From NCBI RefSeq assembly GCF_054482525.1, contig NZ_CM137006.1: a DNA stretch of 64,000 nucleotides; one strand, written 5' to 3'. Shown here one piece after another: positions 6,394 through 10,641 of this stretch (the first letter of the stretch is position 1; the number at the start of each line of letters is the position of its first letter). Both the position numbers and the translations under genes were made by a program. The notes beneath the pieces were generated by a model, which did not search any database, was not told the DNA's origin, and saw only the letters and a program-made list of their open reading frames with translations.

Positions 6394-7095
6394 CTATTCT
6401 GGCGTGCCATTTATTGTTGCCGTCTGCGTTGGTGTATTCACACGATAATACACTCCATTATATGCTGTTCTGGTACACTCACCTAAAGTTTTCGCCGCAT
6501 GCTGTTCAATTAAAGTGATAACTCTCGCCTCTTCTTTATTTTTATATTGTTCATCCGCACGTCTCACAAGCCCCATATAACCATCCTTATCAATAAGATA
6601 TAAGTGCGCATGAGCAAACTCATGCCCCAAACCTAATGCAGGTGATTGTGATTTCGATTTTAAATCAGTTGAACAAAATAAAGCCGCCTTACCATTCCAA
6701 TATATAGTCATTTTATCCGGGTCAAATCTAACGTCGGTTTCATCAATATACTCTATCTTTATGGTTTCTTCAGAGCTTGATAAAAAATCTATAGCTTCTT
6801 TCATTCGTGAATCTTGTTTTAAATACTCAACAGCCTGATTAAAATCACTTGGATCACCGTTAACATGGAATTTTAAACCCAAAGAATCTATAAACCGAAC
6901 AGGGTTTAATGGATATTTATACAGATTCCATTCACCTCTTAGCCCGATTGGATCCTGGGTGATATACCTTCCCTGTAGCGGGTCATAGTACCGGTTCCGG
7001 TTATAGTACAGTCCTGATTCCTCATCATGCTGCTGCCCCGGCAGACGGTATGGCTGGTGCAGGTGATGCGGGTTCTCCTCATTCAGCAGGTTGCC
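6394..7095 (-). CDS. Rhs C-terminal region: end of core (DPIGL ... [13 protein letters not shown] motif) plus HExxH zincin-like toxin domain, in frame with the upstream rhs but separated from it by TGA
   Basis: Same frame as 7096..10641 (7095-6882=213, a multiple of 3). My translation of 6883..7095 gives [74 protein letters not shown], then the track ORF with ...[25 protein letters not shown]... The track start at 6882 is a TTG inside this frame. Sharp drop in GC after the DSLGL motif. Confidence 0.65.
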
Positions 7096-10000
7096 TCATT
7101 CATCATATTCCCCACGCCATTCCGTTGCTCCTTCGGTACTGATGAGCGCCAGCGGCAGCCCCCGGTGGTCACAGTGATAAAGATGAATTTTTCGCTCAGG
7201 TAAATAAACCGGCTCTATCTGTGCCGCCAGCCGCTCCACCGTCAGCCCGCACTGTGCCAGCCACTGGCGGCTTTCACTGCTCACGCGGTCTGCCCGGATT
7301 TCCCCCTCCAGCCTGTCCAGCATCCTCACAAGTTCTGCCGGGAACACCACACCGTGGCCGTCCTCGCTTCCTTCCTGCTGCAACTTCTCCGCCAGGCTCC
7401 GCCGCTGCGTTTTCTCCCGCTCGCCGTTGTCTGTTTCGATGCGGATGAGTGGTGTGAAGCTTCCCGGCTCGTATACCGTCTGGATCCGGCTCTGTTGTGT
7501 CTGTATCGTCGTCAGCCTGTCACCGTCCCAGCCGTACCACGTTACCTCCGGTTTACGCGACAGCGACATCCACCCCGTCAGGTCACGTACCCGCCGCCAC
7601 ACCCGTTTACCCGTCCGGCGGCCCAGCGGGTCGTAGAGGTAGCGGCTCTCCACCTGCGGCTCGCCATGCTGTATCCGCGTGTAGAACACCAGGCGGTGCT
7701 GGCTGTCGTAGTGGTGGGTCCGCTCGTCGTCCGTCCGTATCACACCCGCCGGGATGCGGTCCGTCTTCTCCGTCAGCCTGCCGTATTCATCGTGGCGGTA
7801 GACATAGTGCGCATCCTCCGCGATGCGGTTATCCGGCCACACTGTGAGTGTACTGTCCGGGTGCAGCTCCGGGTCCGGCAGCCGGTTGCCCGCCGGGTCC
7901 GTGGCATACGGGATGCGGATGTCCAGGTCCGGTGCGAGGGTGCGCACGCTCTCCAGCCTGCCCGTGGCGCTGTAGCCGTATTCCCGCGTCTGTCGCGGGC
8001 CGCTGATGCGCACCAGGTCGCCGTTGTCATTCCACCCGTAGTCACGGTCATACACCAGGCTGTTCAGGTGCTGACTCTGTAACTGACCTGCGGGGGTGTA
8101 TGTGCTGGTCAGTTCATATGCGGAATTACTGCCTGCCATGCTGCCGAAGCTGCGCACCGTCTCACGGTGCAGCCTGTCCCGCGTATACTCGACCAGCGGC
8201 GTCCCGCCCAGCTTCATTCCCGCCAGGTAACCGCTGCCATACGTCAGCCACTCCACCGGCGGCAGGCTGTCCGGCGTGACGCGGTTTGCCAGCCCCTGCT
8301 CGTTGTATGCGTGTTTCGTCTCATGCTGCCACAGCAGTTCCCCCGTCTCCGGGTTCTCCACCGTCTGGCGTTCGCCGGTCAGGCGGCCTTTATCGTCATA
8401 GCCATAGTGGACGGCAACACGGTGGCCTTCGCTCAGGTGGCTGATTTCTCTCAGCCAGCCGTGGCCATCATACTGCCACTGCTCTGCCGGTTCGCCGTTC
8501 ACCGTGCGGTGAGTGATACGGTCCGATTCATCGTAGTACCAGAGGATGACAAGCCCCTCATCTTCACTCTGCGTGAGTTTTCCGGTCAGGTCATAATGAT
8601 AACGTTGCGTCCGCCCGTCAAAGCCGCCCTGCTGTACCAGGCGGTCCAGCGCATCGTAGCTGAAGTCGCTGTGACTGCCGTTCTCGTTGGTCAGGCTGAT
8701 GACACGTCCTGCCGCGTCATACTCCATACTGCGCGTCAGCCCGCCCTGCGTGGTGCTGACCGCCTTTCCCCACGCATCGTACTGTGTCTCGCTCCGGTTG
8801 CCGTCCGGGGTGATAACGGCAGTCAGGTCGCCTGCGGCGTTGTATTCATACCGCGTTTCACGGCCCTGTGCGTCTTTCACCGAGGTTAACCGGCCACGGT
8901 TGTCATAGCGGCGGTAAAGGCTGATGCCTTCCTCGCGGTGGACCGCCGTCATCTGGCCGAAGCGGTCATACTCATAGCGGGTCTGGTAGCCCGAGCAGTC
9001 GGTGAACGCCAGCAACTGACCGTAGCGGCTCCAGGTCATCTGCCGGGTGCTGCCCGTCGCATCTGTTGTCGTGGCCGGTAATTCACTGTGCGGATTATCA
9101 TAAGCATACCGGATGACGTCCCCACTGCGCGATGTCTCCGATACCAGCCTGTCCCGCTCATCATACGCCCGGCGGCTCTCCAGCCCGTCCGGGTACACCA
9201 CCGCCGTCACCAGGTTCCCGTCGTTATAGTAAAATTTCGTCTCCCGCCCGTCCGGCGTGGTGATGTCCGTGATGTCGCCTGACACCACATTCAGACCGTA
9301 CTCTGTCCGCCGTCCCGCCGCGTCCGTCTGCGCCGTAAGCCGCCCCACCGGGTCATACCCGCTGCGCGTGACGCTGCCGTCCGCCAGTTCTTTTTTCACC
9401 ACCCGCTTCAGCCCGGCCCCGCCTTCTGTATGCAGCACCTCACGCCGGTTCAGGCTGTCCGTGACGGTGATGCGGTCCTGCTCATACTGGTAGCGGTAAC
9501 TCAGGCCTGCCGGGTTCAGCTGCTCCACCACCCGCCCCGCATCGTCGTAGCGGTAGCGCATCTCCGGCCTTCCCGCGTAACGGTGCGCCACCATCCGGCC
9601 CGGGTGCTGCGCGTCATACGTGAAAGCGCGCACCTGCGTATTGCTGCGGTCATATACCGCCAGCAGTTCACCGGCTTCCGTATACGTGTACCGCACCAGT
9701 GGCGCACCGGGCAGGCTCTCCGGGTATGCCGGGTCGTGCATCAGCCACACCGCCGAAAGACGGATGCCCCTGTCGGGGCCGTATTCGGTACCGGGCAGTG
9801 TGTCGGGGAACGCTGAGGCTGAGAGAGGGCGGGAACGGTCAGAAGAAGATAGCGAAGAGGTGCGGGCCTCTTCCGCACGCTGCGCCTGCGTGGTCAGCAC
9901 CAGACGGAACTCCCGCCCGGCACCGTCCGTCACGCCGGTGATTTCCCCGGCCAGGTCACCGGCGGCCTCACGCCGGTACGTCAGCGTCCGCCCGAAGCGG

Positions 10001-10641
10001 TCCGCCAGCCCGGTAAGCACCCGGTACGGCGGCAGCGGCGCTGGCAGTACGTCCTCAGCACCCGGCACCCGCTCTGACCACCCCAGTATCCACCACGGTC
10101 CCTGTGCGCTGTTGGTCGCCAGGTAAAGATGCGGGCTTAACCGGATATCCGGCGGCAGCGACGCCCACAGCCGTGCCAGCGTGTGGCCGTCCGGCTGCGC
10201 TGCCTTACCACCGCGAACCAGCCACATTGACTCGCTGCGGCTGTACACCGCCTCCCCCGGCAGCAGCGGCTCAAGGTGAATGCTCCGCCCGCCGTTGTCG
10301 TTGAGTATCAGTCCGTCATCACGTAGCTGTAAGCGGATATCAGAAGGCGCTTTCCAGCCGGGGCCAAAAATCCCCACCGGCGCAGGCGTCTTCGTCCGGT
10401 AGCTGCTGTAGGTGCGGGAGAGAATGAACGGCAGCGGGCCGGGCAGCGCAAGGTCCGTCTCGCCGGGCAGCACCTTCGCCCCCAGCAGCGGATTTACCGG
10501 GTTGCCCGAAGTCATCCCGCCCGGACACACCGAGCACGCCACGCCGGTGGGCGCGCCAATTCTTACACCTGCCGAACCCTGGACAATGGGACCGCCATAC
10601 TGAGTCATATCTCCCTGACGCGCCGCTGGTTTTCCGCTCAT
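7096..10641 (-). CDS. Rhs-family polymorphic toxin, N-terminal PAAR-like domain plus YD-repeat core (1181 aa), ended early by TGA
   Basis: [25 protein letters not shown]... N-terminus and many YD/RYxYD repeats match E. coli Rhs proteins. RBS and ATG at 10641. Sits directly downstream of vgrG. The stop at 7096-7098 is TGA where the paralogous copy has TGG. Confidence 0.85.
7662..8402. repeat. Near-identical direct repeat (copy B) shared by the two rhs genes
   Basis: Counterpart of 2860..3600 at an offset of 4802 bp; see copy A. Confidence 0.7.

Follow-up and report, generated by a model that had tools for sequence, protein, structure and literature searches.

A single in-frame TGA interrupts the vgrG-linked Rhs effector gene rhs1 in a type VI secretion island in Escherichia coli

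The window analysed here is a stretch of 64,000 nucleotides from an Escherichia coli chromosome (NCBI RefSeq assembly GCF_054482525.1, contig NZ_CM137006.1) that includes the island of type VI secretion system 1 (T6SS-1) with its vgrG-linked Rhs effector gene, rhs1. The reading frame of rhs1 is broken by a TGA codon. The locus raises the question of what this codon is: the mark of one gene inactivated by one mutation, an error in the sequence, a codon that is read through, or the natural end of one gene in front of another. The comparisons described below argue, with considerable confidence, for a genuine, recent, and clone-specific TGG-to-TGA pseudogenisation of rhs1.

The interrupted reading frame and what the stop codon removes

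The translated part of rhs1 is an open reading frame (ORF) of 1181 codons on the minus strand that starts at position 10641 and ends at the TGA codon at 7098-7096. The same frame stays open past this codon for 233 further codons, up to a TAG codon at 6396-6394, and the probability that a downstream frame of this length contains no stop codon is ~6e-8 as calculated from base composition. The other five frames of these 702 nucleotides feature 7-29 stop codons each. When the TGA codon is read as Trp, the result is a protein of 1415 amino acids in which the tip is formed by residues 1257-1415, and the GC content of the gene, ~0.62-0.65 over the core, drops to 0.35-0.38 over the tip. Downstream of the TGA codon the repaired protein features a DPIGL motif at residues 1230-1234 (6954-6940) and a DSLGL motif at residues 1252-1256 (6888-6874), which are 17 residues apart. 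An earlier reading of the locus, made from the sequence without database searches (the sequence-only reading), had placed the end of the 1181-codon ORF at 7096-7098, where the paralogous copy has TGG, and had described the end of the core, a DPxGL-type boundary, and a low-GC tip of roughly 160 residues in the same frame. The ORF list and the alignment with the paralogue rhs2 agree with its coordinates, and the translation confirms the layout with a tip of 159 amino acids.

Comparison with other alleles determined that the position of the stop codon is occupied by TGG in the paralogue rhs2, where it lies at ~2296-2294, and in the orthologues of strains PCN033, SCU-102, 1190, and VTB96933v. The PCN033 allele is one continuous coding sequence (CDS) of 1420 amino acids annotated as "RHS element core protein", and over the last 1.3 kb of rhs1 the sole difference between the two alleles is G versus A at window position 7096. 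The same 1.3-kb comparison with SCU-102, which is the closest complete genome (99.8% identity over 14 kb), gave the same result, with TGA/TGG as the only difference. On the coding strand of rhs1 the change amounts to one G-to-A transition. A 71-nucleotide probe centred on the TGA codon found no identical copy in a set of 5,426 complete E. coli genomes; each of the 15 best records listed matches the probe over its full length with one base different, and the full-length matches carry TGG at this codon. The claim that one gene has been cut by one Trp-to-opal substitution is borne out by the PCN033 and SCU-102 alleles, which have TGG in a continuous frame. The sequence-only reading had also asked whether the core genuinely ends at 7096-7098 in orthologous rhs alleles; in this comparison the orthologues are single continuous CDSs in which the core does not end there.

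The extent of the loss can be read from the family profiles. The NCBIfam profile RHS_core NF041261 ("RHS element core protein", an equivalog with a curated cut-off of 2000 bits for the whole-protein score) matches residues 1-1256 of the repaired protein over profile positions 1-1261 with 2726.7 bits, and it matches the truncated ORF over profile positions 1-1186 of 1261 with 2551.5 bits. The TIGR03696 profile (Rhs_assc_core) matches residues 1179-1256 in the repaired protein only and is gone from the truncated ORF. The stop codon corresponds to position 4 of TIGR03696, and the Pfam PF03527 match in the truncated protein breaks off at model position 30 of 38. Since the stop codon lies inside both TIGR03696 and PF03527, the product loses the whole plug/autoprotease domain in addition to the toxin. 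The actual ORF does not have an uninterrupted Rhs-associated core domain with two DPxGL-type motifs, and, because TIGR03696 is present only when TGA is read as Trp, the DNA is a member of the family and the gene is a pseudogene. The part ahead of the stop codon features YD (RHS) repeats (TIGR01643, E=1.7e-45, and at least nine Pfam RHS_repeat matches at E<=1e-3) and a significant Pfam DUF6531 match at residues 46-122. A Pfam PAAR_motif match at the N-terminus, residues 3-20, is weak and below significance (E=0.27).

The first in-frame ATG, GTG, or TTG after the TGA codon is the TTG at 6882, and no Shine-Dalgarno sequence was found ahead of it. Because the first start candidate is a TTG without a Shine-Dalgarno sequence, the tip should not be made alone and would be a silent remnant. 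The sequence-only reading had expected a tip-less Rhs protein together with an orphan toxin/immunity pair. The tip-less protein stands, and it also lacks the plug/autoprotease region of TIGR03696; an orphan toxin that could be expressed does not stand, as the downstream frame offers neither a start codon ahead of 6882 nor a Shine-Dalgarno sequence.

The proposed course of events is that a G-to-A transition turned Trp1182 (TGG) into an opal stop, so that translation would end after 1181 residues. The truncated product would retain its N-terminal region along with most of the YD-repeat shell. It would be made without the Rhs-associated core, which forms the C-terminal plug with both D(P/S)xGL motifs and the aspartyl autoprotease, and without the 159-residue M91-like zinc-metallopeptidase toxin. 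The downstream 702 nucleotides would be left as an unexpressed remnant, and the immunity gene would be untouched. The TGA codon would be one of several independent inactivating lesions in a module that has been repeatedly lost, and the simplest reading would be pseudogenisation under relaxed selection, with an insertion of IS421 in tagH as context. The comparisons show the mutation, its uniqueness, the parts removed, and the surrounding decay; that the toxin is no longer delivered and that selection on rhs1 is relaxed are inferences. The gene belongs, as a pseudogene, to a well-known family and has a tip of a known class, and the mutation itself is ordinary gene inactivation. It is of little importance beyond annotation, where rhs1 should be labelled a pseudogene (internal stop) and the downstream 162-residue ORF should not be listed as a separate gene.

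Sequence error, readthrough, and two-gene readings

The TGA codon could be a sequencing, polishing, or assembly error, in which case the isolate would truly carry TGG and the gene would be intact. This explanation would fit the uniqueness of the TGA allele among the 5,426 complete genomes, the truncated protein not being on record, and a frame downstream of the TGA codon that shows no further damage. It is opposed by a Logan contig from run SRR23926769, which was reached by a look-up of the 162-residue ORF that gene callers place downstream of the stop codon. The contig is 100% identical to window positions 5649-7297 (1,649 nucleotides) and carries the same A, so that the TGA codon is found in at least one read-derived assembly from a different pipeline. 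Because this contig was built independently, an assembly artefact is unlikely. The exact VgrG of the window and its flanks were recovered at 100% identity from SRR23926769, SRR11318812, and ENA ERZ19079793, which indicates that the clone has been sampled several times. The difference profile between the window and SCU-102 over 64 kb consists of substitutions, in-frame 6-nucleotide indels, one insertion sequence (IS), and one 1-nucleotide indel, which is not what an error-ridden assembly would look like. The sole 1-nucleotide indel is located at 46722 in a block aligned with the ribosomal RNA operon of SCU-102, and no scatter of homopolymer errors was found in genes across this comparison. A consensus substitution is, in addition, an uncommon type of error. 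The sequence-only reading had allowed for a sequencing error, and this is still allowed as a quite improbable explanation, weakened by the SRR23926769 contig with the same TGA.

Some points weigh against a genuine, recent, and clone-specific pseudogenisation and should be considered together. Run SRR23926769 may be the source reads of the window's own assembly, and its contig excludes an assembler artefact yet leaves room for a mutation acquired in the sequenced culture. Read support for the TGA codon stands at the level of assembled contigs. The exact 1181-residue product is absent from a collection of 15 billion proteins, so the protein databases offer no independent support. The frame downstream of the stop codon is perfectly intact, which means that the event would be very recent and that selection cannot be judged.

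Another explanation is selected or programmed recoding, in which UGA is decoded as selenocysteine or by regulated readthrough in order to tune the amount of full-length toxin. UGA is misread in E. coli by Trp-tRNA in competition with RF2, and reporters in K-12 gave ~2% at 37 C and ~4% at 25 C (PMC10570021). These values of ~2-4% speak for recoding, as does the fact that Trp is the ancestral residue, so that the readthrough product would be wild-type, but background readthrough of this kind occurs without any selection. The in-frame TGA is conserved in no orthologue or paralogue examined, and the surroundings of the stop codon feature neither an Rfam family nor a fold better than shuffled sequences. 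The Rfam search around the TGA codon gave no match better than E=4, and the 81 nucleotides that span the stop (12 nucleotides before it, the stop itself, and 66 nucleotides after it) fold with -16 kcal/mol versus a shuffle mean of -19.2 (z=+1.0), with no stable hairpin. The base after the TGA codon is G, and UGA followed by G is not the leakiest stop context. Selenocysteine insertion and structured readthrough were rejected on the lack of TGA conservation, of an Rfam match, and of a stable hairpin. Programmed recoding is very improbable, and nothing points to readthrough being selected.

Unselected readthrough is a separate matter. Because Trp-tRNA misreads UGA and Trp is the ancestral residue, a small amount of wild-type Rhs may be made, and the rhs1 allele would then be a hypomorph rather than a null, with background readthrough by Trp-tRNA rebuilding the wild-type 1415-residue protein. 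This is unlikely, and the level of readthrough is probably below 2-4% in strains with a more efficient RF2. If the allele were a hypomorph, the clone could deliver a trickle of M91-type toxin, and the downstream frame and the immunity gene would be under some selection.

The least probable reading is a natural two-gene arrangement, with the core ending at the stop codon and the tip as a separate, independently translated gene; gene callers do place a 162-residue ORF from TTG 6882 on some short contigs, but on those contigs the allele is disrupted or runs into a contig end, the orthologues are single continuous CDSs, and a separate tip gene was rejected because no start codon lies between the TGA codon and this TTG, which has no Shine-Dalgarno sequence, and because the stop codon falls within conserved domains, at position 4 of TIGR03696 and inside PF03527.

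The toxin tip, its immunity gene, and related systems

The tip that the pseudogenisation of rhs1 would silence resembles a family of zinc metallopeptidases. Some of its homologues are named "M91 family zinc metallopeptidase", including two from Hafnia. An alignment of 19 sequences (the tip and 18 relatives) features an invariant block, and residues H84, E85, and H88 are invariant; the HExxH motif of the rhs1 tip is HEFAH at window positions 6624-6610. The Pfam family Peptidase_M91 (PF14891) matches nine of the 19 aligned sequences at E<=1e-3, with a best value of 6.6e-9, and the window's own tip matches weakly (E=0.056-0.16). The AlphaFold2 (AF2) model of the tip has a predicted local distance difference test (pLDDT) score of 92.6. 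A Foldseek search of this model against the PDB returned weak, sub-threshold matches (best E=0.079), all of which are zincins: botulinum neurotoxin (BoNT) light chains, PepN, Wss1, and selecase. A sequence search of the PDB with the tip returned nothing relevant. The tip may belong to the M91-like, NleD-like zincin class, with putative zinc-metallopeptidase activity.

The putative immunity gene next to the tip has no differences from its counterpart in SCU-102, where the protein is annotated as WP_024177823.1. The exact 149-residue protein is found on 116 contigs, and one member of its cluster is named DsORF-h1; the "h1" assignment rests solely on names from database sources. No Pfam or NCBIfam family was found for this protein. 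Its signal-peptide-like segment, which was read directly from the sequence, is MMKYLMVLLSLFSASVLG. The presence of this segment in the immunity protein suggests that the M91-like toxin acts in the periplasm. In a search for an internal promoter of the immunity gene, promoter-like sites were no more frequent than in shuffled sequences, and no terminator was found.

The same tip is present on contigs in which the core is disturbed in other ways. Four Logan/ENA contigs (L006, L007, L010, and L011), aligned to window positions 6930-6990, keep TGG. These four feature single-base deletions in CAGGG(A/G)AGG or in CCCAGGAT, just upstream of DPIGL; at this core/tip junction they would represent either frameshifts that arose independently or errors in the reads. 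In L013 (ENA ERZ27272478) the tip follows a short core fragment, with homology to rhs1 that begins at window position 7184, and in L009 (GCA_002474725.1) the homology begins at 6932 with unrelated sequence before it. The presence of the tip behind short core fragments in L013 and L009 indicates that it also circulates as a classic orphan module. Orphan rhs toxin/immunity modules are reportedly known from the Rhs element descriptions of the Hill laboratory and from the work of Koskiniemi et al. in 2014 on Salmonella orphan Rhs. The rhs1 locus resembles them in having a toxin-coding tip and an immunity gene downstream of an rhs gene, with the tip untranslated. It differs from them in origin, as the remnant was created by a point mutation within the main gene and not displaced by recombination, and in that the remnant continues the frame of its own full core.

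The organization of rhs1 is that of the T6SS-associated Rhs polymorphic toxins (NF041261), for which Photorhabdus laumondii Rhs1 is the structural paradigm. The P. laumondii protein features a C-terminal aspartyl-protease plug with two motifs 17 residues apart, and cleavage follows the second motif, which contains the catalytic Asp (PMC8636562). Like these toxins, rhs1 is located directly downstream of hcp-vgrG and features a YD-repeat shell, a core with two D(P/S)xGL motifs at the same spacing, a low-GC variable tip, and an adjacent immunity gene. Unlike them, rhs1 is broken by a nonsense codon at residue 1182, its second motif is DSLGL instead of DPLGL, and Pfam gives no significant PAAR match at its N-terminus.

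Bioinformatic work has already identified M91 tips on Rhs proteins in Shiga toxin-producing E. coli (STEC) O22:H8 (Ec154_02824; bioRxiv 10.1101/2024.03.05.583533) and in Salmonella Dublin (SED_RS06335; PMC8867033), and Ec154_02824 is reportedly also interrupted by a premature stop (bioRxiv 10.1101/2024.03.05.583533). As judged by description, rhs1 shares with both a C-terminal HExxH M91-type metallopeptidase tip on an Rhs protein. It differs from these effectors in that the window's tip alone reaches only E=0.056 on Pfam M91, and the Salmonella immunity candidate is a protein of 110 amino acids with a transmembrane domain (PMC8867033), whereas the one described here has 149 amino acids and a signal peptide. 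A further likeness is with VgrG2b of Pseudomonas aeruginosa, whose C-terminal metallopeptidase is reported to be a T6SS toxin that acts in the periplasm (PMC6899460). Both would be T6SS-delivered metallopeptidases, and the immunity signal peptide suggests periplasmic action of the rhs1 toxin, in parallel to VgrG2b. The carrier is an Rhs cage here and a VgrG fusion in VgrG2b, and the two systems are likened by description. The combination of an M91-type tip with a signal-peptide immunity protein represents an uncharacterised class of Rhs toxin, and the rhs1 allele is intact in PCN033 and SCU-102.

Decay of the hcp-vgrG-rhs1 module

On the minus strand of the E. coli chromosome the gene order is hcp, vgrG, rhs1 (6394-10641), the immunity gene, rhs2, two small ORFs, and an ISAs1 transposase gene. 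The T6SS-1 core cluster, from tssB to tssM, is located on the other side of the hcp-vgrG-rhs1 module. The coordinates of the features are collected in Table 1.

Table 1. Features of the rhs1 locus and its surroundings, in window coordinates
Feature	Position	Strand	Basis or remark
hcp	13026..13544	minus	ORF list, annotation of relatives
vgrG, 702 aa, intact here, directly upstream of rhs1	10708..12816	minus	ORF list, annotation of relatives
rhs1, translated part, 1181 codons	7099..10641	minus	N-terminal region with DUF6531, YD/RHS repeats, start of Pfam RHS domain
In-frame TGA (opal), codon 1182	7096..7098	minus	TGG (Trp) in all orthologues and the paralogue
Untranslated rest of Rhs core, residues 1183-1256	6874..7095	minus	Rhs-associated core/C-terminal plug; TIGR03696 and motif positions
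Toxin tip, 159 codons and TAG, low GC, M91-like zincin (putative)	6394..6873	minus	HEFAH at 6624-6610
Putative immunity gene, 149 aa, intact, "dsORF-h1" family	5932..6381	minus	hydrophobic signal-peptide-like N-terminus
rhs2, paralogous second rhs, pseudogene	1907..5855	minus	frameshift near 4290, internal stop near 3617-3667
IS421 (IS4 family, IS186-like), in tagH of T6SS-1 core cluster	20212..21548		extra versus SCU-102

Other lesions in this module are found in relatives. In the two closest complete genomes with an intact rhs1, the vgrG gene is annotated as a pseudogene: in SCU-102 (10714-12822 of the sequence compared) it has an internal stop, and in PCN033 (571-2678 of the sequence compared) it has a frameshift. 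The N-terminus of rhs1 is missing in 1190 and VTB96933v, and RS571 has lost vgrG-rhs altogether. The three genes vgrG, rhs1, and tagH are all intact in no strain examined. The paralogue rhs2 is flagged as "frameshifted; internal stop" by the Prokaryotic Genome Annotation Pipeline (PGAP) in PCN033, 1190, SCU-102, and VTB96933v, and since its lesions are common to these four strains they are older than the TGA codon in rhs1. The locus is a clean example of the decay of a T6SS effector module through many independent small lesions in closely related E. coli, and it illustrates that effectors counted from a genome sequence can outnumber those that work.

The core cluster is also interrupted in the window. 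The gene tagH encodes a forkhead-associated (FHA) domain protein and contains an IS421 element of 1.3 kb. The 372-residue ORF of this element matches the IS4 transposase NF033592, and duplicated sequence of the GGGAGATATCCC type borders the terminal inverted repeats of the element. The insertion is found with 100% identical junctions in RS571, CUVET20-PYO4, JBEHAAB-19-0176, VTB96933v, and OZ501607, and it is absent from SCU-102; in RS571 and VTB96933v the annotation shows tagH split by it. Because it is present in other strains but not in the closest relative, the element may have inserted here more than once, at a hot spot, and the site in tagH resembles a hot spot of the IS186 type. VTB96933v was considered as a closer relative on account of the shared insertion and was rejected, as it is more distant than SCU-102.

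Differences of the rhs1 core from SCU-102 and PCN033 are tightly clustered at 8929-9034, 9823-9877, and 10075-10453, and the core features in-frame indels at 7707-7716 and 9862. The clustered differences look like patchy gene conversion among rhs paralogues. In tssH/clpV, on the plus strand, positions 26697-26730 form a perfect array of the hexanucleotide CAGAGT with 5.7 copies; SCU-102 has one unit fewer and VTB96933v has three fewer. This copy variation is in frame and alters a short peptide repeat of the ATPase.

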